A stretch of 40,010 nucleotides of DNA. Origin: Escherichia phage vB_Eco_Titus. The position numbers and the translations under genes are program-made. The stretch lies in sequence record OX090892. One strand, written 5' to 3'. The notes under the pieces were generated by a model, which did not search any database, was not told the DNA's origin, and worked only from the letters and a program-made list of their open reading frames with translations. Below are positions 1,047-39,749 of this stretch, piece by piece; positions within the stretch are counted from its first letter, which is position 1; every line of letters starts with the position of its first letter.

Positions 1047-1787
1047 ATGATTCATGTACATCTGCCAACAATCATTGGTATCTGCGCTCATGCACCACGT
1101 TCAGGTAAAGACACTCTGGCTGACTACATCGAGCGAGAAGCTGAGACCAAGGGTCTGCGCTATTTCCGTATTGCCTTCGGTGACTTGCTGCGTGAGGTAG
1201 TATCAACACTGTTCGGTATGAACTCTCGTGACTACGTTATGGCTGCTCTGCTGGGTTCCATGAAAGACGTAGCTCATGGTCGGTACAGTATCCGTAACCT
1301 AGAGAACGAATCCCTTAAAGAGTTCCTGATTGGAACCTTGGGATTAGACCCAGACGAACCACGTTCCCCACGTTTCTATATGCAGCGTGTAGGCAACGAC
1401 TACGTTAAGGGTCACTTAGGTCTTGAGAGCATGTGGGTTGACGCTGTGGGTACACAGATTACCACTCGCCTGTTGTACGGTAACGCTCCTGACTTGGTGA
1501 TTATCACAGATGTCCGCTCACCTAATGAGTTCGACTATGTGACTGAATGTGGGTTCTCGGTTGAAGTTAAGACTCAGGGCTTCCCTGCCTTGACTCACTC
1601 TGCTAAACCTGACACCTCTCACCCTGTAGAGAATCACCGCTTTGACTGTGACTTTGTGTTCACCAATGTGTATGGTGACATGCAGTCCCTTCAGTATCAG
1701 CTCCGTGAGTCTGGTCTGATTGATGCAGTCATTGAGCGTAACGAGATATTGAAGCAACGTGTATTTGAACAGGAGGATTACCAGTGA
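1047..1787 (+). CDS. Deoxynucleoside monophosphate kinase, P-loop type (T4 gp1-like), at the T7 gene 1.7 position
   Basis: ATG at 1047 (track start 1032 is TTG inside the promoter); P-loop GICAHAPRSGKDT resembles remembered T4 dNMP kinase LSGVKRSGKDT; downstream blocks MQRVGNDYV and LVIITDVRSPNE also align. Confidence 0.55.
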   Translation: MIHVHLPTIIGICAHAPRSGKDTLADYIEREAETKGLRYFRIAFGDLLREVVSTLFGMNSRDYVMAALLGSMKDVAHGRYSIRNLENESLKEFLIGTLGLDPDEPRSPRFYMQRVGNDYVKGHLGLESMWVDAVGTQITTRLLYGNAPDLVIITDVRSPNEFDYVTECGFSVEVKTQGFPALTHSAKPDTSHPVENHRFDCDFVFTNVYGDMQSLQYQLRESGLIDAVIERNEILKQRVFEQEDYQ

Positions 1788-16676: not shown

Positions 16677-16696
16677 TTCCATTAACATCTGACATA

Positions 16697-16730
16697 AAGG
16701 GGAGGCCATTAGGTCTTCCCTTTTTTTTTC
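16697..16730 (+). terminator. Tphi-like terminator (GC-rich hairpin plus T9)
   Basis: AGGGGAGGCCATTAGGTCTTCCC forms a ~9-bp stem (two G-U), followed by TTTTTTTTT, immediately after capsid stop as in T7. Confidence 0.7.
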
Positions 16731-17358: not shown

Positions 17359-19749
17359 ATGGGACTTGTCTCACAATCAATCAAGAACCTGAAGGGTGGT
17401 ATCAGTCAACAACCTGACATCCTTCGGTTTGCAGACCAAGGGGAGAAGCAAGTCAATGCGTTCTCCTCAGAGGTTGAGGGTCTACAGAAACGACCTCCAA
17501 GCACTCACGTCAACCGATTGGCAGACCACGGTGCTCTCAGTGAGAAACCTTATTGTCACGTAATCAACCGTGATGAACAAGAGAAGTACGTTCTGTTCTT
17601 CGGGAACAACACTGTGTACGCATACAATCTATTGACAGGTTTGTATGTTCCAGTGAACTTCCCTAGTGGTGCTTCTTACATTGCCACTGCGAACCCGCGT
17701 AAAGACTTACGAATGGTTACCGTAGCGGACTTCACCTTTATCATCAACCGTAATGTGGTAGTACAGGAAGGTTCCACTCGGACACCGATGCACTACCAAC
17801 AAGGTAAACATGGTCTTGTATATTGCCGTGGTGGCCAATATGCTCGTACCTATCAGATTATTCTGAATGGTGCAGTGCAGGCTACCTATACGGCTCCACT
17901 AGGTGACCAAGTAGCCCATGCCAAAGAGATTGACACTCAGTTTATCTTGACTAAGCTGGCAGAGAACTTCAACGCTAACCTAAGCCAACACGGATGGTCA
18001 GCGTCAGTTCAGGATGGTTACCTGTGGATTCAAGCAGGTGGAAACACTATCACTTCCCTGAAGGTAGTGGACGGCTTCAACGGGCAACTGTTGGATTGTA
18101 TAACTTATTCAGCACAGAAGACCGTAGACCTTCCGGTTACAGCTCCCGATAAATACCAAGTGTTAATCTCAGGAGATGCAGCTCAAGGTCAGGATGACTT
18201 CTGGGTTCAGTATGATGGTCAACGCCGTGTATGGACTGAAATCCCTGCACCTAACATCATTGCTGACCTGAACAAGAATACCATGCCTTGGGTGATGATT
18301 CGTGAGGCAGACGGTAACTTTACCCTACGTCCTACCGATTGGTCTACCCGTGGTAGTGGTGACGATGACACTAACCCGATGCCTTCCTTTGTGGGTCAGA
18401 CAATCAACGATGTGTTCTTCTTCCGTAACCGTTTAGGTTTTCTGAGCGGTGAGAACGTTGTGATGTCTGAGGCAGGGTCATACTTCAACTTCTTCCCTCG
18501 GTCTGTTGCTGTGACTTCTGATAGTGACCCTATTGACGTTGCTGTATCAACTAACCGGATTAGTATCTTGAAGTACGCTGTGCCATTCTCTGAGGAACTG
18601 CTATTATGGTCTGACCAAAGCCAGTTCGTAATGACTGCCGATGGTATTCTGACTCCTACGTCTGTCCGCTTGGATATGACCACTGAGTTCGAGGTGACCG
18701 ATAGTGCTCGCCCTTACGGTATTGGCCGTGGTGTTTACTTCATTGCACCTCGCGCTAAGTTCTCCTCAGTGCGGCGTTACTATGCTGTGCAGGACGTTAC
18801 TCAGGTGAAGAACGCTGAGGACGTTACAGCTCACGTACCGAGTTACATCCCTAATGGTGTACACAAAGTCACCGGTAGTTCCATTGAGAACTTGCTTACC
18901 GTGTTGACCGAGGGTGCTCCACATAAGGTGTTCCTTTACAAGTTCCTGTACTTGGAAGAACAGATTGCCCAGCAGTCTTGGTCTGAGTGGGACTTTGGGG
19001 AAGGTTCTCGTGTACTGTGCTGTGACATGATGGGAGCTATTATGCACCTCGTGATTGATGCCCCTTCTGGTATCTACATGGAACGCATTGAGTTCACTCA
19101 GAACACTAAGGACTATCCTAACGAACCGTACCGTTTGTATATGGACAGAAAGATTCGTTACACCATCCCTAGTGGCGCATACAACGATGACAACTTTGAG
19201 ACTACTATCTACTTGCAGAACGTGTATGGTGCTAAGCCTCAGTACGGTAAGTATTTCGTAGTGTTAGAATCTGGTGTCGTGTATGAGTTCGACCCGCCTG
19301 ATGGTGGTTGGGCTGCGTCAGATGGTGGTCTTCGCATCAACGGAAACCTTGAAGGTTACAACGTGTTCATCGGTGAGCAGTACACCATGCTGTATCAGTT
19401 CTCCAAGTTCCTTATTAAGTCTGTTGATACTAATGGTGGTACAACTACTGAGGACATCGGTCGCTTACAATTGCGCCGCGCTTGGGTTAACTACGACAAG
19501 TCAGGCGACTTCCGTATCCAAGTTGAGAATCAAGGTCGAGTGTTCACGTACAACATGACAGGTCGCCGCTTAGGGACTAAACAACTGGTACTTGGTGAGC
19601 AGAACCTAGATACAGGACAATTTAAGTACCCTGTGTCAGGTAACGCCAAGGTGGTTAACATTACGTTGCTATCCGATGCCCCAAGCCCTGTTGCTATCAT
19701 TGGTGGTGGATGGGAAGGTAACTACATCAGACGTTCATCTGGTATTTAA
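17359..19749 (+). CDS. 12: Tail tubular protein B (T7 gene 12 homologue)
   Basis: 796 aa, TAAGGAGG RBS; size and position match T7 gp12 (794 aa). Confidence 0.85.
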   Translation: MGLVSQSIKNLKGGISQQPDILRFADQGEKQVNAFSSEVEGLQKRPPSTHVNRLADHGALSEKPYCHVINRDEQEKYVLFFGNNTVYAYNLLTGLYVPVNFPSGASYIATANPRKDLRMVTVADFTFIINRNVVVQEGSTRTPMHYQQGKHGLVYCRGGQYARTYQIILNGAVQATYTAPLGDQVAHAKEIDTQFILTKLAENFNANLSQHGWSASVQDGYLWIQAGGNTITSLKVVDGFNGQLLDCITYSAQKTVDLPVTAPDKYQVLISGDAAQGQDDFWVQYDGQRRVWTEIPAPNIIADLNKNTMPWVMIREADGNFTLRPTDWSTRGSGDDDTNPMPSFVGQTINDVFFFRNRLGFLSGENVVMSEAGSYFNFFPRSVAVTSDSDPIDVAVSTNRISILKYAVPFSEELLLWSDQSQFVMTADGILTPTSVRLDMTTEFEVTDSARPYGIGRGVYFIAPRAKFSSVRRYYAVQDVTQVKNAEDVTAHVPSYIPNGVHKVTGSSIENLLTVLTEGAPHKVFLYKFLYLEEQIAQQSWSEWDFGEGSRVLCCDMMGAIMHLVIDAPSGIYMERIEFTQNTKDYPNEPYRLYMDRKIRYTIPSGAYNDDNFETTIYLQNVYGAKPQYGKYFVVLESGVVYEFDPPDGGWAASDGGLRINGNLEGYNVFIGEQYTMLYQFSKFLIKSVDTNGGTTTEDIGRLQLRRAWVNYDKSGDFRIQVENQGRVFTYNMTGRRLGTKQLVLGEQNLDTGQFKYPVSGNAKVVNITLLSDAPSPVAIIGGGWEGNYIRRSSGI

Positions 19750-19766
19750 CACCCACTATTGGAGAC
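19743..19766 (+). promoter_or_regulatory. Phage RNAP promoter (variant TATTTAACACCCACTATTGGAGAC), +1 G at 19761, with leader hairpin
   Basis: Promoter family; overlaps gp12 stop; leader GAGGGTCACT..AGTGGCTCTC can form a ~10-bp stem; drives dNK and gene 13. Confidence 0.55.
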
Positions 19767-19826
19767 ATAACACCCACAACCTGAGGGTCACTATATTTAG
19801 TGGCTCTCTTTTATGGAGGAATTTTA

Positions 19827-20456
19827 ATGAGAATTGTAGTTATTGAAGCTAACATTGGTGCAGGTAAATCCACTTTGTTACAACCTCTTGTGGATGAACT
19901 TCAGCTATGGTCTGGTGAAGATTGGGACTTAGTGATTGAACCAGTAGACCAAGACCCTGAGTTCCACCGTCTGTTGAAAGAAATGATTGCCGATATGTCT
20001 AACCCAGACAAGCGTATTCGTTTCCAGATGTACCTGACCGAGCAGCGTCAACAACTGTTAAAGAACTTACCTGATGGAAACTATGTCGTTGAACGCTCTC
20101 TGTTCAGTGACCTTGTGTTCTCCCAGATGTATTTCTTAACGACTGAGAAACCTTCTGCCGAGTACATGAATTATTACTACAACATCAAGGAACGTCTGAA
20201 AGACTACCCTCAGATTGATTGTGTCGTGTACTTAGACCGTGACCCTGCGTCTTGCCATGAGTCCATCATCAAGCGTGGTCGTGAAGGTGAGCACTATGAG
20301 ATGCACTATCTGGAAGACCTAAAGCGTTTCCACGATGCGTGTCTACCTCAGATTGCTCGTGAGTATAACACTAAGCTAATCACTGTGGACTTAGGTAAGA
20401 CCTATGCTCTGCCTTCTGTGATTGCTGCTGATGTAATGGAGCACTTATATGGCTAA
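19827..20456 (+). CDS. Deoxynucleoside kinase (dCK/dGK/dNK family), 209 aa
   Basis: ATG at 19827 with GGAGG upstream; N-terminal P-loop VIEANIGAGKSTL (family consensus IEGNI.xGKST), ERS motif (VVERSLFSD), lid IIKRGREGE; track start 19800 is GTG in the leader. Confidence 0.7.
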   Translation: MRIVVIEANIGAGKSTLLQPLVDELQLWSGEDWDLVIEPVDQDPEFHRLLKEMIADMSNPDKRIRFQMYLTEQRQQLLKNLPDGNYVVERSLFSDLVFSQMYFLTTEKPSAEYMNYYYNIKERLKDYPQIDCVVYLDRDPASCHESIIKRGREGEHYEMHYLEDLKRFHDACLPQIAREYNTKLITVDLGKTYALPSVIAADVMEHLYG

Positions 20457-20946
20457 TGAAATGAAACCTATGTTTACTAAAGTCAAAGCTACTCTGGAAC
20501 ATGCAGACCGCTTGTCTCAGAATTTGTCCATTGAGGACTGCAACGAACTGGTAGCCAGCGGGTCTTTACGTGAAGACTATGAACTGCGTGATGTTCGTAA
20601 TCTGCTTCGCACTTGTGTTCAATTCGGTGGTGATGTTTATACCATCTTAGACCAATATCAAGTACCTATCATGATTGGTGGGGTAGCTGAAGATATGGGC
20701 TACTTTGGTGCTGGCACAGTGTGGATGCTGACCAGTAAGACTGCTTCAATGCGTCCAGCCACTCAACGTGCAGAACTTCTGTTAATGTTGTCAGACCATC
20801 TGAACCTGTGCTTGCAGAAGTACGTTAAGCTGCACAATGTGATGTGGAAGAAGAACACTGGTCATTATCGCTTCTTGTATAACCTTGGTGCTAAGTTCCG
20901 AGAGATTCCAGATAAGCCTGACTTCCTGTACTTCAGCTTTGAATAA
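20449..20946 (+). CDS. Internal virion protein, gp13-like (165 aa)
   Basis: Position between dNK and gp14; weak similarity to remembered T7 gp13 (GTVW..., ...RFL..LGA.F). Confidence 0.55.
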   Translation: MANEMKPMFTKVKATLEHADRLSQNLSIEDCNELVASGSLREDYELRDVRNLLRTCVQFGGDVYTILDQYQVPIMIGGVAEDMGYFGAGTVWMLTSKTASMRPATQRAELLLMLSDHLNLCLQKYVKLHNVMWKKNTGHYRFLYNLGAKFREIPDKPDFLYFSFE

Positions 20947-20957
20947 GGAGGTGCAAT

Positions 20958-21527
20958 ATGTGTGACCCCGCGTCAATCACAATGGCTACAATCGGGGTGG
21001 GAAGCTCTCTGATTGATGCCAAGAATCAGAACAAAGCGTATGCTGCTGGTGAGTTAGCAAGACGTAAACAACTCATGCAGATGGTACGTCAGGCCAACAC
21101 TCAGGATGCGAACCTTCAGTTACAAGACAAGTCTAACTTCGAGGCTGCTATCCAAGAGCTTGAGAAGGCAACGATGGACTCTGTGAAAGCACAGGGTACT
21201 GTCCAGACTGCTATGGCTGAAAGTAACCTTGAGGGTCGCTCTATGGAACGTACAAAACGTGATGTAGAGAATGTCTACCTGCGTACCAAGGGCATGATTA
21301 ACGAGAACTATGAGCGTGATTATGCAAACATCTATGCTCAACGTGTCTCTAACCGTGATAACCTGATTGCTGCCATCGAGGGTATGCCTCCACTTCAGCG
21401 TCCTGACCCACTGTCCCAAGGACTCAATGTGGTCACTGCTGGTGTACAAGGTGCTATTGTTGGTAGTAACATCTGGGGAACTTACAAGAAGACTCCTCAG
21501 TTCGGAAATACAGGAGTAACTAAATGA
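20958..21527 (+). CDS. 14: Internal virion protein A (T7 gene 14 homologue)
   Basis: 189 aa; TAAGGAGG RBS; ...RRKQLMQMVRQAN.QDA.L.LQ, LEGRSMER.KR, ENY.RDY..I.AQ resemble T7 gp14. Confidence 0.8.
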   Translation: MCDPASITMATIGVGSSLIDAKNQNKAYAAGELARRKQLMQMVRQANTQDANLQLQDKSNFEAAIQELEKATMDSVKAQGTVQTAMAESNLEGRSMERTKRDVENVYLRTKGMINENYERDYANIYAQRVSNRDNLIAAIEGMPPLQRPDPLSQGLNVVTAGVQGAIVGSNIWGTYKKTPQFGNTGVTK

Positions 21528-23602
21528 GTAAACTTCAACAGGCTTTAGCCTCAGTTAAAGCTCCCACTGTTTCCATCAAAGGTGTACAAGGTGCAACGTT
21601 CACTGCCCAAAATGTGCAAGCACAGCAAACCAATCAGACCAACTACTCAGGTCAGTTGTTAGGCATTGCACAGCTAGGGTCACAACTCTATGCAGACTAT
21701 GTAGACCGTAGAGAGAAACAAGGGAAAGAAAGAGCTGCGGAAATCCTGATGAAGAAGATGCAGCCTGAACAGATTCGTGAACTACGACAGTCAGGCGCTC
21801 TGCTCTATCAAGATGACCCGTACGCCATGCGTGCTCTTGAACGTGAATTAGGTCGTCAGGAGGCATACAACGTTGACGCTATGGTTCGTGAACGTATTGC
21901 CAATGGCGACTACCCAACTCGTGCAGCAATGGAACAAGACCGTAGTGATATGATGGAGTCTGCCCGTGATGGTATGGCTCAGACTTACGGTATTGAACCA
22001 ACGTCAGAGTATTTCCGTGAGGGTATGCAAGCTGATATTGTTGAGCGCAATATGGCTATCTATGATGCTCAAGCACGTAAGCAAGACCAACGTCACCGCA
22101 ACGAAGCCCGTGTAGTCATTGAGTCTAACTTAGGTTCACTGGTCAATTCGGGCAATGGTGGTCACGTTCTGTCTTACCTTCAGGACATGAAGAACAAAGG
22201 TGTTATCCGCAATGATGCTGAGTTTGAAACTTATGCTATCAAAGCGGTGAAAGACCTGTCTCAACGTCCTAACAGCATTGACCAAGTTCGTGCCATTATG
22301 GACTCGGACATTCCGCTGTACGGAGGTAAGACAACCTTACGTGCCCGTCTTGGTGAAGAAATGTTCCGTAACTTCGAGAACTCCGCTGCTGAGTCTACAT
22401 TGCGTAACAATCAAGAGACGCAACGGTGGTTCACCCAGACGTTAAACTATGTGGCTAACCCAGACCTGACACAAGATGGTGCTGAGTTACAAGCATACGA
22501 TAACCTTGCGAAGTTAGAACAATTTGCTAACCAGACACAAGGTACTGAACAAGCGACTGCTGTACGACAACAAATTGAGCAGGCTAAGATTCAGCTTGAG
22601 AATAAACTCCGAGCTAAGAACCAAGCCAAGCAGAAAGAGTTAGCTAAACAGCAACAGCAATACGTTCGGTTAGCTGCGATTGATGAACGTGTGGAAGGTC
22701 GTCTAAGTGGTGACAATCAGTTATCCCTGAAGTTGGATAGCTTTGAGTCAAATGAAACCACTGGTGAATACACTAAGAATGACCTCAACGCTTACTATCG
22801 CATGAAGATGGACGAGATTAAGAACGACCCTCAAATGTCTCAGGAACAGAAGGCACTCAAGGTGTTGAACATCGGGGCACTACTGAAGGATGAAGACAAA
22901 GCGGGATTTAGCGCCCACTTTGGGGAGATGATTAACTCGGCCACTCAGGAACTCAACAAGTACGGTGTCGCCTTAGATGCTGGCGCTGAGTTACCTCCGA
23001 CTCCTACCTTGGATTCCATGATGGAGTTGTATAAAGCTGATAAGCAGAAGTTTGTCAGTGTGTTCGGTTCAGAGTCGTCTTTGATTACTGACCTAGCGGC
23101 AGGTGCTACACTTGGTGTTCACCCTGCACGTATCGCACAAGGTCGTATCGTCTTGGATAAGATGCCTAAGGATGCTCGAATGGCTATGTCATTAGAGTTC
23201 CAGAACATGATGTCTAAGACTGATGACATCTATAACTCGCTGCCTGATACTCAGAAGGAAAGCCTACAAGCTGCCTATGTGGGTATGTCTGGCTTGTCTA
23301 ATGCAGACCGAGTGAAGGTACTGAACGAACACCTGAAAGACCAATATCAATCACTGACTGACCGTGGATGGTTTAACACTGGTCATGTACGTGGAGTAGT
23401 CCCTAAGACTTTCCTTATGGGCGACCCTACCAATCCATCTTCTGTGGATGTCGGTAAGGCTAAACTTCAGAAGTACATTACCACTGAGTTCGGTGATAAC
23501 GGCCTGACAAGCGTCTCTGCTGTTGGTGATACCCTCCTGTTGTGGAATACCCTGCGTAATACGCCTCGGTATCTGACCAAGGAGGAGTTGATGAAGTATT
23601 AA
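21524..23602 (+). CDS. 15: Internal virion protein B (T7 gene 15 homologue)
   Basis: 692 aa; position and size comparable to T7 gp15 (747 aa); start overlaps gp14 stop. Confidence 0.75.
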   Translation: MSKLQQALASVKAPTVSIKGVQGATFTAQNVQAQQTNQTNYSGQLLGIAQLGSQLYADYVDRREKQGKERAAEILMKKMQPEQIRELRQSGALLYQDDPYAMRALERELGRQEAYNVDAMVRERIANGDYPTRAAMEQDRSDMMESARDGMAQTYGIEPTSEYFREGMQADIVERNMAIYDAQARKQDQRHRNEARVVIESNLGSLVNSGNGGHVLSYLQDMKNKGVIRNDAEFETYAIKAVKDLSQRPNSIDQVRAIMDSDIPLYGGKTTLRARLGEEMFRNFENSAAESTLRNNQETQRWFTQTLNYVANPDLTQDGAELQAYDNLAKLEQFANQTQGTEQATAVRQQIEQAKIQLENKLRAKNQAKQKELAKQQQQYVRLAAIDERVEGRLSGDNQLSLKLDSFESNETTGEYTKNDLNAYYRMKMDEIKNDPQMSQEQKALKVLNIGALLKDEDKAGFSAHFGEMINSATQELNKYGVALDAGAELPPTPTLDSMMELYKADKQKFVSVFGSESSLITDLAAGATLGVHPARIAQGRIVLDKMPKDARMAMSLEFQNMMSKTDDIYNSLPDTQKESLQAAYVGMSGLSNADRVKVLNEHLKDQYQSLTDRGWFNTGHVRGVVPKTFLMGDPTNPSSVDVGKAKLQKYITTEFGDNGLTSVSAVGDTLLLWNTLRNTPRYLTKEELMKY

Positions 23603-23624
23603 TAACACGTAAGGAGGACTTTCA

Positions 23625-26600
23625 ATGAGTTATTCAACTGATACGTCCTCCACTTCAATGTATCAACGACTGAAGGCATTGAGTGGAGACACACACGGAT
23701 TAATTACTACCGCTGGCAATGAGCTTGGATTACCTGAAGGCCAAGCTCTGAAGGTTGGTATGATTGAGTCCGGCTTAAAGGCTGATGCCAGTTCTGGTGT
23801 AGCCAAAGGTCTATTCCAATTCACCAAGACTACTTGGGATGCAATGAAGCAGAAGTATGGTGCTGAGTATGGTATCGACCCTACCGCTTCCCGTACTGAC
23901 CCTGTAGCTAACACTATCCTTGGTGTGGCTTACCTGAAAGAGAACGCAACAAACTATCAGTCAACCTTCGGTAAAGACCCTGAGTTGGTAGACCTATACA
24001 TGGGTCACTTCTTGGGTCAGTCTGGTCGTAACCAATTCCTGAAAGCAATGGAACAGAATCCTAATGCTCCGGCTTATGCTGTGGTAGGTAAACGTTCTGT
24101 AGCTAACAACAAAGATGTCTTCTTCAAGAAAGACGGTACTGCTCGCACACTGAATGAAGTGTATCAAATGTACTCTAACAAACTGAGTGCAACCGAGCTG
24201 GAACAGGACATGAAGACCGACCGTTTGAAGATGGACATTCAGGATGAATTGTTGTGGAAAACTCTAGGGCGTAGCCAAGACGGAAGTGCTAACGCAACAT
24301 TGTCAACCGGAACTGCACCAAGTACACCAAACTTTGACGTCTCCCTTAGTGACTCCAAGCCTCAGTCTATCGCTGACGCTCTTAGCAGCTACGGTTTGCA
24401 AAAGCCTGAAGATACTGTAGAGAAGGACGAACGGTCTTTCTTTGATGGTGCTTGGGAAGCTGCCAAAGCGGAAATCCGATTGTCACCTATTGGTCGTGAC
24501 CTACGTGAAAAGTACATTCAGTCAGGTGCTCCGGTAGAGTGGGACTCTGCGGCTGCTGCTCTGCGTGAGTCATTCAGTGGTCTGTCTCAAAGTGAAATGT
24601 TCACAGGTAACATCAATCCGTTAGAGCCTATGGACATTACGCCTGAGATGTGGAACACAATCCTGAGCAACGGTGTAGACAAGAAGTGGATGGAGTACAT
24701 CAAGATGTCCGCTAACCCACAAGACCTTGTTAACCGTGTTCAAATGGCTCAAGAGATGCAACGTGCAGACCAAGCACGACAAGCGGCTGCTACAGGTGGA
24801 CAGTTAGTCGGTGGTATTGCTGGTGCATTCGGTGACCCATTGACGTTCGCTACTGGTGGTACATCCGCTGGTGGTAGCTTAATGACTCGCCTCTTTGTGG
24901 CTGGTACTGAAGCTGCTGCTGGTAATGCTGCCAATGAGTTCTCACTGAGTCAGGAGACACGAGGTGGTGTAGAGACTAACATTGCGGCTGCTGCCTTAGG
25001 TGGCTTTGCTGGGGGTGTAGCTCTGCGTGGCCTAGGTGAAGCATTCACTAATATGTCTGCTGCTGGTCGTATGAGAGCACGTCAAGAGTCTATTGATGCT
25101 GGTGTACCGGATGTTACTGCCCGACCTGATGTGGAAGTACCTGAAGGCAAGACTTGGGTTGAGAAACCTGATGAAGCTGGTGCTGTAGTTGATGAACTCG
25201 GTAACACTCACTCTGCCACATCCTTCGGTAATCCTAAGGTAATGGAAGCTGTGGAAGCTAACAAAGGTATCGAACTTGGTGGCCTTAACTCCATCAGCTA
25301 CGACCTGCTTCGCAGTGAGTCCACTGAGACTCGTACCATTGCACAGGACTTAGTGCGTTCACCTACAGGTATCAAAGGTGGTGGCTCAGGTGTCACTCGT
25401 ATGACCGCTGAGGACTATCTGGGACGACTTGAAGGGCAAGACAACCTAATCTATACCCAAGCGATGAAAGCTCGTGAGAAAGCCTATGAGCACTCTATGT
25501 TCGACCTTCAAGGTGGGCGTAATGCTCGTGAAGCTATGGAACGACAAGTAGTCGAGGCCATTGAGTCCGGTGACTTCAGCCGACTCACTCCTGAGATGAA
25601 AGAGTATGCAGACCTGTTGACTACCAACTTCACGGAGAAACACTATGCAGCCTCAAACATTGCAGCACTGAGTGGCAACGCTGATGCACCTAATGTACTG
25701 ACCTCCACGATTGACCCTAAGCGTTACGTCCCTGCTATCTATGAAGAAGGTAAGGTGATTGACGCTAAGATGCGGTTTGACCCTGAAGGTAAGTACGAAG
25801 GTCTGTACAACGAGATTCAAGCAAATTGGACTGCTCAATGGAAGAACAACCACAACGGTGTTCGTGAGCGTATGAAAGCCTTGTTTGATGAAGACAACTC
25901 TAAGTTCGCAGAAGACTTACGCGCTAAGTTGACCAAGGACAAGGAGCTGGATGTTGTACCTGAGGGTAAACAGAAGTCTGCCCGTATGGAGAAACAAGAG
26001 GGTATCCAAGCCAAGATTAGCAAGGCTGAGGAACTGCGTCAGAAGAACGCTGTCAAGTTACAGAAAGCACGTAAACCTGAAACTAGAGCTAAGTATGAGG
26101 GTCTTGTACAGAAGTATGACAAGCAATTGTCTGAACTGAAGACAGAACTCGAAATGACTAAGCCTATGGATGAAGACAAGCTGCTGGAAATCTATGCACA
26201 GCGTTACATCGAGCGTAAGTCCTACGGTATTGCCAAGAATGGTGAGTTCACCCACTCGTCTTCTCTTGAGGATGTAGACCTGAGTGATTCACTGGTAGGT
26301 ATCGAAAATAACAACTTCACCCAAGAGCGTAACATCTTTGATATGGCCTATGAGTCTATCGCTAAGGATGGTGAACCGTTCTCTCTGAATGACCTCCGTC
26401 ACTTCGATATGATGAACGCTATGTCAATGTACAACAAGCGCATGAACGGTGATATTGCTATCCATGCCTCAACAGGTAAGACAACGAAAGACCTCAAAGA
26501 TGCTATCGTAGCGTTGCCTGAAGGCCGTGACCGTACTAACCTTGACCAACTGACCCGATTGATTACTGGCCGCCGTAGAGCTGAAGACCCTGCGTCTGCC

Positions 26601-27950
26601 TTGGTGACTGCAATTCGTGGTCTGCAAGATTGGTCGTTCCTGTCTAACTCTGCGCAGATGTGGGTGAACAACCTAACTGAAGTATCAGGGTGGGCAACTA
26701 ACCGGATGATGTTTGTGGCTCGTAATGGTGTCAAAGGTCTGAACCAACTGTTGAACCCAGAAACGAAGTTCTCTAAGGCTGACCTGAAGGACTTTGCTGA
26801 TGGTCTGTTCGGCTATGACCTGAACACTTCGTTGTTACCTTCCTACCGGAACATCAAAGACCAACTGATTAAGACAGGTGCTAGCGAACGTGCTGCTTCA
26901 ATCGCTGCTGGTATTCGTACAAGTGGTGCATTGGCTGCAAGTCATAAGTACAACATCTACACTAAGCTGTTGAACAAGACTACTGAAGGTCTGGTCAATA
27001 TGGCACGTAGTGGTGTACTGAGTGACATCACACACGAAGCATTCGGTGGTGTGCGTATCAATAAGGCTATCTTGAGGAATGCCTCAATCACTGAGAAACA
27101 GTATGCAGGTGTCTTGGATATGTTACGTCAGCACATCAAAGTGCAAGACGGTAAGTATGTCCCTGATGTGCAGGCCATTAAGCGTGACGTTAGGTCTAAT
27201 GACCTGTGGCGCTTAGCGGACTACATTGCGTCTGACTCTGTGATGCGAACAAACAAGGTGGGCTTCAACTATGTGGCTAAACCTAATGCCTTTATGAACC
27301 TTGCGTTGCAGTTCAAGTCCTTCATGTTGAAGGGTCTGAATGCTCGCACTGTTCGTATGTGGCATGAGTCATTCCAAGGTAAGTCTATTGACAACGCTAT
27401 GCGAGTTATCGTTGGTGCTGGTATCACTGGTGCTATCTGGGCTGCACAGGCTCACTACCGTTCTATTGGTATTCCACCTGAGCAACGCCAAGAGTACCTT
27501 GAGCGTATGTTAGACCCTAGCATGGTAGCTTATCAGGCATTCTCACGTAGTGCTGAGATGGGTACTGTACTTGGTGGTGTAAACCTCGCGTTGACTCCAT
27601 TCACAGACAGTGACCTGTTCCGTTTAGGTCGTTCTACCGTAGACCCTGTACGGGCTATGAAAGGACGCTCACCTTTACGTGCAGACGTTCTGAATCAACA
27701 AGCTGTCGGTGAACAACTTGGTGACGCTGTGTACAACACAATGCCAGCCTTGAAGTTCATTGGTACTGCTGGTGTCCTTCCGGCTAACGCTGTGCAATGG
27801 GCACTTGCCGACCACGGCTATCAGTCTGACATGCAGGCTCGTACCTTCTTTGAGAACTTAGCGTCTGCTGCTCCTAATGCTCCTGAGATTCAGTGGTTAA
27901 TCGGGATGATGGCACAAGATGCAGGTGCTTCAGGTAAGGGTATGTGGTAA
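23625..27950 (+). CDS. 16: Internal virion protein C with N-terminal lytic transglycosylase domain (T7 gene 16 homologue)
   Basis: 1441 aa; N-terminal SLT-like motif (..GLFQFTKTTWDAM..), position before tail fibre. Confidence 0.85.
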   Translation: MSYSTDTSSTSMYQRLKALSGDTHGLITTAGNELGLPEGQALKVGMIESGLKADASSGVAKGLFQFTKTTWDAMKQKYGAEYGIDPTASRTDPVANTILGVAYLKENATNYQSTFGKDPELVDLYMGHFLGQSGRNQFLKAMEQNPNAPAYAVVGKRSVANNKDVFFKKDGTARTLNEVYQMYSNKLSATELEQDMKTDRLKMDIQDELLWKTLGRSQDGSANATLSTGTAPSTPNFDVSLSDSKPQSIADALSSYGLQKPEDTVEKDERSFFDGAWEAAKAEIRLSPIGRDLREKYIQSGAPVEWDSAAAALRESFSGLSQSEMFTGNINPLEPMDITPEMWNTILSNGVDKKWMEYIKMSANPQDLVNRVQMAQEMQRADQARQAAATGGQLVGGIAGAFGDPLTFATGGTSAGGSLMTRLFVAGTEAAAGNAANEFSLSQETRGGVETNIAAAALGGFAGGVALRGLGEAFTNMSAAGRMRARQESIDAGVPDVTARPDVEVPEGKTWVEKPDEAGAVVDELGNTHSATSFGNPKVMEAVEANKGIELGGLNSISYDLLRSESTETRTIAQDLVRSPTGIKGGGSGVTRMTAEDYLGRLEGQDNLIYTQAMKAREKAYEHSMFDLQGGRNAREAMERQVVEAIESGDFSRLTPEMKEYADLLTTNFTEKHYAASNIAALSGNADAPNVLTSTIDPKRYVPAIYEEGKVIDAKMRFDPEGKYEGLYNEIQANWTAQWKNNHNGVRERMKALFDEDNSKFAEDLRAKLTKDKELDVVPEGKQKSARMEKQEGIQAKISKAEELRQKNAVKLQKARKPETRAKYEGLVQKYDKQLSELKTELEMTKPMDEDKLLEIYAQRYIERKSYGIAKNGEFTHSSSLEDVDLSDSLVGIENNNFTQERNIFDMAYESIAKDGEPFSLNDLRHFDMMNAMSMYNKRMNGDIAIHASTGKTTKDLKDAIVALPEGRDRTNLDQLTRLITGRRRAEDPASALVTAIRGLQDWSFLSNSAQMWVNNLTEVSGWATNRMMFVARNGVKGLNQLLNPETKFSKADLKDFADGLFGYDLNTSLLPSYRNIKDQLIKTGASERAASIAAGIRTSGALAASHKYNIYTKLLNKTTEGLVNMARSGVLSDITHEAFGGVRINKAILRNASITEKQYAGVLDMLRQHIKVQDGKYVPDVQAIKRDVRSNDLWRLADYIASDSVMRTNKVGFNYVAKPNAFMNLALQFKSFMLKGLNARTVRMWHESFQGKSIDNAMRVIVGAGITGAIWAAQAHYRSIGIPPEQRQEYLERMLDPSMVAYQAFSRSAEMGTVLGGVNLALTPFTDSDLFRLGRSTVDPVRAMKGRSPLRADVLNQQAVGEQLGDAVYNTMPALKFIGTAGVLPANAVQWALADHGYQSDMQARTFFENLASAAPNAPEIQWLIGMMAQDAGASGKGMW

Positions 27951-27971
27951 TTAACACCCACTATTGGAGAG
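27948..27971 (+). promoter_or_regulatory. Phage RNAP promoter (TAATTAACACCCACTATTGGAGAG), +1 G at 27966, with leader hairpin
   Basis: Overlaps gp16 stop; leader GAGGGAG..CTCCCT can pair; phi17 equivalent. Confidence 0.6.
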
Positions 27972-35239: not shown

Positions 35240-35489
35240 TCCACAACAAACAGGGTCACACAGTATGTACACCTGATGGATTTGCGATGAATGCTCGTGT
35301 TGAACGACTGAAGCGTGAACTCAAGATGAATCGTATGCTGAACAACATCTAATAGCTACGATAATCAAGCAACACTGCTGGTCTTGTTGTACTACGCAAC
35401 TGCAAATGTAGTCGGGACGATGAAACTGCTATCCCTAAAGTTCTTTAACAATCTGGTATAAAGCGCATGTGTTGAGTTAGAAAGTGATT

Positions 35490-38867: not shown

Positions 38868-38891
38868 TAATTAACACCCACTATTGGAATA
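38868..38891 (+). promoter_or_regulatory. Phage RNAP promoter (TAATTAACACCCACTATTGGAATA), +1 G at 38886; first of a tandem pair
   Basis: Promoter family; tandem arrangement analogous to T7 phi1.1A/phi1.1B. Confidence 0.6.
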
Positions 38892-39023: not shown

Positions 39024-39749
39024 ATGTTAGGTGGAGCACCATTTCAGATTGTACAACCTAAAGAGCCAGTGAAGTTCGGTGGATTAGGTCACGCTAATGT
39101 AGGCATAAAGTCATTACCTAAAGACCGTGGTGTATCATGGTCTGACTTCTATAAGGGTCGCTTAGGTCAGTCCTATGTTAGTCATGTGTACAAGAACTAT
39201 AAGGTACATATTGAAGCTATTCGCAGATACATCATTCAGCTATCGCTCAGTAAGAACAGCTCAATCAAACCACTACGTGTAGTCGAAGCTGGTTGTGGTA
39301 TCGGGTCTATCACACTGAACCTTGCTGATATGTCAGACCATAAGACAGTTATCTGCTCAGGCTTTGATGTGTCAGAAGGACAAGTTGTTAACTCTCGTGA
39401 GAACGCATTGCTTAACAATGTGGGTGACAGAGTGTCCTTTCATAAAGGTGACATCTTTAATAGTGACGTATATAAAGATGCCCACATCATTCACTCTCAT
39501 GGTGTCTTAGAACACTTCAGTGACGATGACATTATGAAAATCCTATTGACACAACTCAGTTCTCCTAACGTTCGGTATGTCATTCACTATGTACCACTGG
39601 AAGGATGGAAGACTCCCTCTTATGGTGATGAACGCCTGTTACCGCTGACACATTGGGTCAATGAGTTCGCTCCTACCCGTACCGTTGCGTTCAACGATGG
39701 TAAAGACGCTGTGCTAATCTGGGACGTTGAGTCTTTACTTCGCAATTAA
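39024..39749 (+). CDS. Class I SAM-dependent methyltransferase (241 aa), substrate unknown
   Basis: AAGAGGA RBS; Rossmann motif I VVEAGCGIGSITLNLA, acidic residue after beta2 (GFDVSEGQ), GDIFNSD, HIIHSHGVLEHFSDDD typical of small-molecule/RNA methyltransferases; no DPPY/NPPY DNA-MTase motif. Confidence 0.65.
   Translation: MLGGAPFQIVQPKEPVKFGGLGHANVGIKSLPKDRGVSWSDFYKGRLGQSYVSHVYKNYKVHIEAIRRYIIQLSLSKNSSIKPLRVVEAGCGIGSITLNLADMSDHKTVICSGFDVSEGQVVNSRENALLNNVGDRVSFHKGDIFNSDVYKDAHIIHSHGVLEHFSDDDIMKILLTQLSSPNVRYVIHYVPLEGWKTPSYGDERLLPLTHWVNEFAPTRTVAFNDGKDAVLIWDVESLLRN

Follow-up and report, generated by a model that had tools for sequence, protein, structure and literature searches.

A predicted dCK/dGK/dNK-family deoxynucleoside kinase encoded between genes 12 and 13 of the T7-like Escherichia phage vB_Eco_Titus

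Introduction

In phage T7, no gene lies between the end of gene 12 at position 27226 and the start of gene 13 at 27307; this interval holds the phi13 promoter, at 27274. No homologue of the deoxynucleoside kinase (dNK) family was found in T7, and its gp1.7, a phage kinase that raises nucleotide phosphorylation, has dNMPs as substrates and shows no sequence relationship to this family. A kinase gene in the 12/13 slot is nevertheless already on public record in T7-like phages, together with its placement and promoter: it is MAK_033 ("Putative deoxyribonucleoside kinase") in Escherichia phage vB_Eco_Mak (OX001577.1), orf42 behind promoter phiPorf42 in Vibrio phage ICP3, and follows promoter P14 in VP3. 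The Mak record does not annotate the promoter before the kinase, and the ICP3 paper covers the promoters but not the kinase. In the full-text literature searched, neither an assay nor a knockout of the kinase or of any orthologue was found.

Here we analyze this locus in a window of 40,010 nucleotides from Escherichia phage vB_Eco_Titus (OX090892). By BLAST the window is 99.95% identical to vB_Eco_Mak (16 mismatches and 2 gaps; the two records are permuted), with 100% identity across the region 19000–21600, and the kinase gene is also identical in vB_Eco_Bam (OW991346.2). A sequence-only reading of the window had proposed that a deoxynucleoside kinase with its own promoter is inserted between genes 12 and 13. 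A kinase between these genes is a correct but ordinary observation, since the gene, its position, and its promoter already carry annotations here and in some 40 relatives.

Results

As in T7, a promoter follows gene 12 in Titus and genes 13–16 lie downstream. Synteny agrees with the sequence-only reading in that the kinase ORF stands after the phi13-equivalent promoter and directly before gene 13, whereas T7 lacks the kinase (Table 1).

Table 1. Features of the kinase locus and of the second putative kinase gene in the Titus window
Feature	Position	Strand	Remarks
Putative T4-gp1-type dNMP kinase	1047-1787	+	PHROG 139, E 4e-30; P-loop PRSGKDT
Gene 12 homologue, tail tubular protein B / nozzle	17359-19749	+	PF25675 Phage_nozzle, 1116 bits; MAK_032; stop inside promoter
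Phage-RNAP promoter, phi13 equivalent, TTAACACCCACTATTGGAGACAT	19746-19768	+	perfect match to the phage's own consensus
Leader hairpin	19783-19808	+	11-bp stem including 2 G-U pairs, 4-nt UAUU loop, then UUUUAU
Shine-Dalgarno GGAGG	19815-19819	+	7 nt 5' of kinase ATG; read from sequence
Deoxynucleoside kinase ORF, dCK/dGK/dNK family	19827-20456	+	ATG 19827, stop TAA 20454-20456, 209 aa
Kinase P-loop	19848-19874	+	IEANIGAGKST = residues 6-16
Kinase E38-P39-V40	19938-19946	+	
Kinase F66-Q67-x-Y69	20022-20033	+	
Kinase R74	20046-20048	+	
Kinase E89-R90-S91 (ERS)	20091-20099	+	
Kinase D95	20109-20111	+	
Kinase lid, residues 146-155	20262-20291	+	RGREGE = 150-155
Gene 13 homologue	20449-20946	+	PF11090 Phage_T7_Gp13, 40.6 bits; tblastn match to T7 gene 13
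Genes 14, 15, 16, internal core proteins	20958-27950	+	PF24072 T7_gp14; MAK_035 to MAK_037
gp14 homologue	20958-21527	+	PF24072

The kinase ORF matches the Pfam dNK profile PF01712 over profile positions 2–172 of 203 (E = 8.5e-21; 75.1 bits against a cut-off of 27), the outcome that the sequence-only reading had predicted, and thymidylate kinase profiles scored below threshold. All 21 matches in a PDB sequence search were dCK, dNK, or dGK. The AF2 model of the protein (pLDDT 92.2, pTM 0.87) gave a consistent picture when compared with the PDB by Foldseek: the best 50 matches were all dCK, dGK, dAK, or dNK structures, with a probability of 1.00 and TM scores of 0.68–0.80. Sequence comparison thus assigns the ORF to the dCK/dGK/dNK family and not to another P-loop family. 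The gene is under strong purifying selection, with dN/dS of 0.09–0.13 against four relatives, and its GC and GC3 resemble those of the adjoining genes. An AGGAG precedes the kinase in all relatives aligned, and a longer reading frame from GTG 19800, inside the leader hairpin, is an unlikely start.

Residue conservation was read from two alignments, of 21 and 42 sequences, comprising phage, bacterial, and reference enzymes. The three motifs from which the family had originally been read, IEANIGAGKST, ERS, and RGREGE, are all in place. The P-loop pattern GxxxxGK[ST] is present (G11-A-G-K14-S-T16), with G13 and K14 invariant in both alignments; the other invariant positions are E38, P39, Y69, R90, R150, R152, and E155, so that the catalytic Glu, the ERS Arg, and the lid arginines are retained throughout, while Q67, R74, E89 (the ERS Glu), S91, D95, and F98 reach 90% conservation or more. 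E38-P39-V40 aligns with PEPV of human dCK and TEPV of Drosophila dNK (Dm-dNK), which places E38 at the position of the catalytic-base Glu (dCK E53, Dm-dNK E52). F66-Q67-M-Y69 aligns with FQTY of dCK and shows no variation among the 42 sequences of the family alignment, Q67 occupying the position of the base-binding Gln (dCK Q97, Dm-dNK Q81). E89-R90-S91 corresponds to the E127-R128-S129 motif of dCK, whose Arg contacts the 5'-OH and phosphate.

Two positions depart from the reference enzymes. The lid, K149-R150-G-R152-E-G-E155, keeps two of the three dCK arginines (R188, R192, and R194) and a Glu equivalent to dCK E197, but the first Arg (R188) is replaced by Ser146, with Lys149 nearby. The sugar 3'-OH-contacting Tyr (dCK Y86, Dm-dNK Y70) is replaced by Ile54, a position that is I, V, L, or T, mostly I or V, throughout the phage and gammaproteobacterial subfamily. 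We regard it as a variable contact and not a family-defining motif, yet the difference is genuine and sugar discrimination may differ. The R74/D95 pair aligns with R104/D133 of dCK; the R104M/D133A variant is the thymidine-accepting form of dCK, as the description of PDB 3qeo has it. Because of this correspondence, the substrates of the phage kinase are most likely dC, dA, and dG rather than dT.

The phage promoter consensus TTAACNNCCACTATTGGAR has 16 matches in the window, all on the plus strand, where 100 shuffles give an expectation of 0. The copy ahead of the kinase overlaps the gene 12 stop codon (TAA, 19747–19749), and a promoter lies over this stop at the same place in 9/9 relatives aligned. 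Alignment to the T7 consensus would put its +1 at G19761. In the promoter map of the window the next promoter is at 27951, with none between, and the predicted transcription unit is therefore dNK-13-14-15-16, an arrangement of the T7 class III type. The kinase stop and the gene 13 ATG overlap by 8 nt (ATGGCTAA), an overlap kept in all annotated relatives, and the gene 13 Shine-Dalgarno GGAG (20436–20439) is within the kinase ORF. Hence the promoter described as the kinase's own would serve the whole unit and not the kinase alone, since no promoter separates the kinase from gene 13, with whose ORF it overlaps.

A leader hairpin follows the promoter, as had also been noted at the outset. It was found by a terminator-like scan and has a terminator-like form, with 5 GC pairs in its stem, and the kinase leader RNA folds with -19.6 kcal/mol (z = -2.5). 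Many other promoters in the window likewise have a leader hairpin downstream. The GenBank record of vB_Eco_Mak annotates this hairpin as a terminator (Mak_Term02), which makes its role ambiguous. The Vibrio and Aeromonas relatives carry a hairpin in the same place, unrelated in sequence and mostly without a U-run; their leaders were too divergent to align, and no covariation support for the hairpin was obtainable from them.

Orthologues of the kinase with 68–77% amino-acid identity occupy the 12/13 slot of phages whose hosts are Vibrio or Aeromonas rather than E. coli: ICP3 (orf42), N4, VP3, VP4, JSF, and Rostov phages among the Vibrio chatterjeeviruses (Chatterjeevirus), and T7-Ah, PZL-Ah8/Ah152, PT2, JELG-KS1, and phiA014S among Aeromonas phages. 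In these relatives, as in Titus, a phage promoter spans the gene 12 stop and the kinase overlaps gene 13 by 8 nt, but the specificity region of the promoter differs, TTAACCC[AT][CG]ACTATAGGGAG in the Vibrio and Aeromonas relatives versus TTAACACCCACTATTGGAG in Mak-type phage. The same 12-dNK-13 layout occurs on a 41-kb metagenomic contig. A gene 13 homologue was detected in 488 records, the kinase in just 44; by this count, most Studiervirinae appear to manage without it. We rejected a recent horizontal insertion specific to Titus, given the neighbor-like GC and GC3 and a layout shared by E. coli, Aeromonas, and Vibrio phages. The placement claimed by the sequence-only reading thus stands, whereas the "insertion", judged from these comparisons, is old and clade-wide and not particular to Titus.

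More distant homologues lie in other surroundings. Colwellvirinae phages carry one (42–45% identity) within a DNA-metabolism block, and on a 57.6-kb phage contig the homologue is beside MazG-like, nucleoside deoxyribosyltransferase-like, PnuC-type transporter, NrdD, and ligase genes; we count both neighborhoods as supporting context for a nucleotide role. Stand-alone chromosomal dNKs of Enterobacterales (Kluyvera, Leclercia, Pantoea, Mixta, and Yokenella) and of Enterovibrio resemble the Mak protein more closely than the Colwellvirinae copies do: they share 50–58% identity with it over the full length, are equal to it in size, and keep its invariant residues. These bacterial dNKs are single cellular genes in non-phage surroundings, for example beside valS/holC or a fimbrial operon. 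An origin of the bacterial homologues in prophages or defence islands is unsupported in Kluyvera and in a Salmonella-labelled genome, where the neighbors are housekeeping or fimbrial genes. The Enterovibrio homologue sits amid mobile-element-like genes. No DNA-level match to the kinase was found in 5,426 complete E. coli genomes.

The sequence-only reading had also pointed to a P-loop dNMP kinase near the start of the window, and profile evidence agrees. In addition to its PHROG match, this ORF scored 26.4 bits against Pfam DNMK, below the cut-off of 27.1, and PF21448 was present in 8/8 of its homologues. A single-sequence PDB search gave no match; a family profile was needed, and its sole significant PDB match was the T4 dNMP kinase 1DEK (E = 4.4e-9). 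Assignment as a dNMP kinase is supported, and the enzyme would presumably take the salvage step after the dNK.

Discussion

We consider it probable that the Titus ORF encodes an active salvage kinase of the dCK/dGK/dNK (non-TK1) type, expressed as the first cistron of dNK-13-14-15-16 and acquired long ago by the clade. Such an enzyme would move the gamma-phosphate of a nucleoside triphosphate onto the 5'-OH of a deoxynucleoside, with Glu38 as the likely base, Arg90 and the lid arginines Arg150 and Arg152 stabilizing the transition state, and Gln67 presumably reading the base. It would complement the host's only known deoxynucleoside kinase, a TK1-type thymidine kinase, and its products could feed the T4-type dNMP kinase, so that more dNTPs would be available to phage DNA synthesis. 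Phage RNA polymerase would transcribe the gene from the phi13-equivalent promoter, and its translation may be linked to that of gene 13. The gene itself appears to have been taken up long ago, and fixed, in the Mak / Aeromonas T7-Ah / Vibrio Chatterjeevirus clade, with a gammaproteobacterial dNK pool as its source. The source of free deoxynucleosides is conjectural, because T7-like phages get dNMPs directly from the breakdown of host DNA and require no nucleoside kinase. The position of the gene behind a late promoter, which would make the kinase available late, counts against a salvage role, as do the Ile54 and Ser146 replacements and the scarcity of the gene among Studiervirinae.

That late timing bears on a different, rather improbable explanation, in which the kinase rescues nucleotide pools from immunity: it would re-phosphorylate deoxynucleosides released by dNTP-depleting defences (dGTPase/SAMHD1-like dNTPases or nucleotidases) and, acting jointly with the dNMP kinase, replenish dNTPs at a late stage of infection. 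dNTPase defences do yield deoxynucleosides, the phage has predicted kinases for two successive salvage steps, none of the early ORFs scanned was recognized as a T7 gp1.2-type gene, and expression from a late promoter coincides with peak demand for DNA packaging. Against this, a defence and anti-defence profile search including PADLOC gave no meaningful match, and the chromosomal stand-alone homologues, being outside defence contexts, suggest ordinary metabolism. Moreover, an ICP3-like phage with a kinase orthologue remains sensitive to inhibition by AvcD, a dC-nucleotide deaminase of V. cholerae (bioRxiv 10.1101/2022.05.16.492052). An extended form, to which we give similarly little credence, combines the Tyr-to-Ile/Val exchange with late, gene 13-coupled expression and proposes an altered sugar or base range (for example, ribo- or modified nucleosides), so that kinase and dNMP kinase would make up a two-step anti-depletion module rescuing nucleosides from host immunity that degrades dNTPs or nucleotides, instead of performing plain salvage.

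A role in the virion or its assembly, with the protein packaged or ejected with gp14–16 or acting with gp13 and the kinase fold secondary, would fit a first cistron of the 13–16 operon that overlaps gene 13 in every relative, but we judge it very improbable: the full set of catalytic residues is kept under strong purifying selection, and homologues of 42–64% identity belong to DNA-metabolism modules in other phages or lie on bacterial chromosomes with no virion genes around them. No virion proteomics identifying the kinase was found in the literature searched. A proteomics paper on Peru-2 virions deals with another phage and makes no mention of the kinase. Equally remote is thymidylate kinase activity (dTMP to dTDP instead of nucleoside phosphorylation), the label given by PHROG 761 and by the RefSeq names of the N4, VP4, and ICP3 orthologues, which we reject because the weak matches to these families, which share the fold, fall below curated cut-offs (PF02223 Thymidylate_kin, 20.2 bits versus 27; NCBIfam dTMP kinase TIGR00041, 23.7 versus 83.25; dNK, 75 versus 27), no thymidylate kinase is among the 21 PDB sequence matches or the best 50 structural matches, and the dNK-specific EPV Glu, FQxY Gln, and ERS motifs are conserved in the family.

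Under the salvage reading, a non-TK1 deoxynucleoside kinase, a type not known from E. coli, has become fixed in the late operon of one T7-like clade whose hosts are E. coli, Aeromonas, and Vibrio cholerae, and the phage would carry two consecutive salvage steps, dNK and T4-type dNMP kinase. Beyond confirming an existing annotation the significance is small; the biology at stake is the substrate range, a part for environmental or defence-generated deoxynucleosides in phage DNA synthesis, and the sensitization of hosts to nucleoside analogues by these phages, including the cholera phage ICP3.

Among solved enzymes, human dCK (2a2z), Drosophila dNK (1j90/6ybh), and Mycoplasma mycoides dAK (2jaq) share the fold of the kinase model. 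They also have in common with it the P-loop and the counterparts of dCK E53, Q97, E127/R128, the R104/D133-type pair, the lid RxR, and E197, although identity to the three is only 22–30%. At 209 residues the phage protein is shorter and lacks the dCK insert, and it differs in having Ile54 in place of dCK Tyr86 (Dm-dNK Tyr70) and a Ser in place of Arg188.

The ORF between genes 12 and 13 belongs to the deoxynucleoside kinase family

The sequence-only reading had assigned the ORF between the gene 12 and gene 13 homologues to the dCK/dGK/dNK family of deoxynucleoside kinases on the basis of its motifs. Each of these (P-loop ANIGAGKST, ERS, and RGREGE) is found in the ORF, and a profile search upholds the assignment, with 75.1 bits for Pfam dNK, whose cut-off is 27. 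All PDB sequence matches (21/21) are dCK, dNK, or dGK/dAK. An AF2 model built with 42 homologues as input reached a pLDDT of 92.2 and a pTM of 0.87, and its top 50 Foldseek matches in the PDB are all dCK, dGK, or dAK (TM 0.68–0.80). GGAGG occupies the Shine-Dalgarno position 7 nt 5' of the ATG. Comparison with four relatives gave a dN/dS of 0.09–0.13, indicating strong purifying selection on the gene.

One alignment set the kinase beside 17 homologues from phages and bacteria, plus partial sequences of human dCK, Drosophila dNK, and M. mycoides dAK; a second family alignment contained 42 sequences. Gly13, Lys14, Glu38, Pro39, Tyr69, Arg90, Tyr135, Arg150, Arg152, and Glu155 are invariant, while Gln67, Arg74, Glu89, Ser91, Asp95, and Phe98 are at least 90% conserved. 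From known dCK/dNK structures, we take Glu38 to be the counterpart of the dCK catalytic base E53, Gln67 of Q97, Glu89/Arg90 of E127/R128, Arg150/Arg152 of lid residues R192/R194, Glu155 of E197, and Arg74/Asp95 of R104/D133. In dCK, the R104/D133 pair disfavors thymine; the Foldseek matches include 3qeo, the thymidine-accepting dCK variant R104M/D133A. The kinase retains the catalytic Glu, ERS, and lid Arg150/Arg152, with two deviations: the Tyr that contacts the 3'-OH (dCK Y86, Drosophila dNK Y70) is replaced by Ile54 (I/V across the subfamily), and the first lid Arg of dCK, R188, by Ser146.

Genome identity and existing annotation

Positions 19000–21600 match vB_Eco_Mak (OX001577.1) and vB_Eco_Bam (OW991346.2), both unclassified Studiervirinae, at 100% identity over the full query (megablast). 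By BLAST, the Mak record is 99.95% identical to the whole window (17 mismatches and 2 gaps overall), and the window is circularly permuted relative to the linear Mak genome (window 1 = record 4652). In that record the kinase is MAK_033, "Putative deoxyribonucleoside kinase", flanked by MAK_032 (tail tubular protein B) and MAK_034 (gene 13 homologue); none of the 16 phage promoters is annotated there. The kinase gene, its odd slot, and its promoter are already known from public annotation of the same phage and its relatives, since the VP4/N4/ICP3 records, and the promoter of the kinase unit is annotated as phiPorf42 (ICP3 record) and P14 (VP3 record). Fourteen phage promoters have been described in ICP3 (PMC3037004). 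A literature search found no experimental characterization of the kinase.

The methyltransferase-domain ORF matched no PHROG family. The two ORFs 3' of the tail fibre gene matched nothing in Pfam, and their PHROG matches were weak and to families of unknown function; they may act as further receptor-binding or accessory tail-fibre proteins peculiar to this group of phages.

Features of the window and loci of kinase homologues
Feature	Position	Strand	Remarks
dNMP kinase ORF	1047-1787	+	PHROG 139 match, 4e-30
Phage promoter TTAACNNCCACTATTGGAR, 16 copies	starts 878, 1019, 1928, 4610, 6686, 9644, 11556, 14397, 15374, 19746, 27951, 34182, 34952, 38871, 38974, 39746	+	span 878-39764
phi13-equivalent promoter TTAACACCCACTATTGGAGACAT	19746-19768	+	phage promoter copy; overlaps gene 12 stop
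Leader hairpin, 11-bp, then UUUUAU	19783-19808	+	RNA fold; terminator-like form
Terminator Mak_Term02	19783-19814		annotated in Mak record
Kinase ORF, 209 aa	19827-20456	+	ATG 19827, TAA 20454-20456
Leader hairpins 0-30 nt after phage promoters	1968-2000, 9659-9690, 14412-14436, 27966-27995
Strong hairpin, 12 bp, 6 GC pairs, then seven T	16696-16723		directly 3' of major capsid gene
Two ORFs, 114 and 361 aa	29905-31321		3' of tail fibre gene
Direct terminal repeat, 127-bp	35360-35486		collapsed to one copy; Mak record comparison
Early-region ORF	39024-39749		class I SAM-dependent methyltransferase domain (Methyltransf_31, E 1.7e-10)
Colwellvirinae metallophosphatase and dNK homologue pairs	L004:3991-5618, L005:4246-5606		Aeromonas HJG, Vibrio 15E36.1; dNK homologue directly 3' of calcineurin-like metallophosphatase, ORFs overlapping
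Gene block with dNK homologue (64% identity)	L019:980-9188		57.6-kb metagenomic phage contig
Stand-alone chromosomal dNK-family genes	L012:8001-8630, L015:8001-8633, L014:8001-8630

Distribution of the kinase

By tblastn, the kinase is found in 44 phage records, including Mak, Bam, six Aeromonas T7-Ah-like phages (72–77% identity), and about 30 Vibrio cholerae Chatterjeevirus genomes (68–69%). Since 488 records contain a homologue of gene 13, the insertion is restricted to one clade. The kinase lies between genes 12 and 13 in every relative record examined. In the window, its neighbors are gp12 (PF25675), gp13 (PF11090), and gp14 (PF24072) by Pfam. The Mak-type, Aeromonas T7-Ah-like, and Vibrio Chatterjeevirus groups are mutual nearest relatives (JELG-KS1 paper, PMC10974468).

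More distant homologues occupy metabolic contexts. Colwellvirinae copies (42–45% identity) belong to the DNA-metabolism block, where a metallophosphatase immediately precedes them; such a pairing of phosphoesterase and nucleoside kinase could serve as a coupled module for nucleotide remodelling. In the metagenomic contig, the block containing the homologue encodes a MazG-like pyrophosphatase, a nucleoside deoxyribosyltransferase-like protein, a PnuC/NMN-type transporter, anaerobic RNR NrdD, ligase, and a single-subunit RNAP; the phage-encoded nucleoside-type transporter adjoining the kinase is notable. Stand-alone chromosomal homologues (50–58% identity) occur in Kluyvera, Leclercia, Pantoea, Mixta, Yokenella, Intestinirhabdus, and Enterovibrio, with housekeeping or fimbrial neighbors in two cases and mobile-element-like ones in Enterovibrio. 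Textbooks credit enterobacteria with TK1 alone. No DNA-level match to the kinase was found in 5,426 complete E. coli genomes.

A late promoter precedes the kinase and genes 13 to 16

Phage promoter copies (8 close, 16 relaxed) all lie on the + strand, with none expected in shuffles; those at 38871 and 38974 form a tandem pair. The kinase had been credited with its own promoter, and a copy does lie at the claimed site, where alignment to the T7 consensus would place the start at G19761. A scan found no promoter between 19746 and 27951, however, so this promoter heads a dNK-13-14-15-16 unit and not the kinase alone. The kinase stop and gene 13 ATG overlap by 8 nt (ATGGCTAA), with the gene 13 GGAG inside the kinase ORF; all annotated relatives share this overlap, as does a T7-like metagenomic contig of 41 kb.

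At the position of the kinase leader hairpin, relatives carry hairpins of unrelated sequence, most of them lacking a U-run: the Vibrio phages have a long imperfect one, and JELG-KS1 and the closest metagenomic relative have hairpins at +1. We judge a leader or processing role slightly likelier than a dedicated terminator. The hairpin following the major capsid gene is the Tphi equivalent, annotated as Mak_Term01.

Proposed role of the kinase

The analysis establishes the family and fold of the protein, its conserved residues, its promoter and gene order, and the selection on its gene. Beyond this, we consider it probable that the protein is a functional dC/dA/dG kinase. Expressed from the phi13-equivalent late promoter, it would phosphorylate dC, dA, and dG (a predicted activity and substrate range), complement the host TK1-type thymidine kinase, and pass dNMPs to the phage dNMP kinase, with substrate origin and fitness benefit both presumed. 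The latter ORF scores 26.4 with Pfam DNMK, marginally short of the 27.1 cut-off. All of its homologues carry PF21448, and T4 dNMP kinase 1DEK is the sole significant match of its family profile (E 4.4e-9). Together with the PHROG 139 match, these support, at the level of homology, the earlier proposal of two consecutive salvage steps.

A counter-defence against dNTP depletion is unlikely, and is weakened by the observation that AvcD still inhibits an ICP3-like phage carrying a kinase orthologue. A virion or assembly role is very improbable: the conservation of the catalytic residues speaks against it, as do the metabolic settings in which homologues occur. We equally reject a thymidylate kinase, which the motifs and profile scores contradict, thymidylate kinase profiles falling below their own cut-offs.

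Comparison with T7

As the sequence-only reading had stated, T7 has no kinase at this junction: the end of its gene 12 (27226), phi13 (27274), and the start of gene 13 (27307) follow one another with no gene between them, and tblastn found no kinase match in T7-group phages. The −7 to +6 part of the promoter is TATTGGAG in this phage and TATAGGGAG in T7. Many other promoters in the window also lead into leader hairpins; stable leader hairpins appear to be common to the transcripts of this phage in general, and they resemble the T7 phi10 5' stem-loop.
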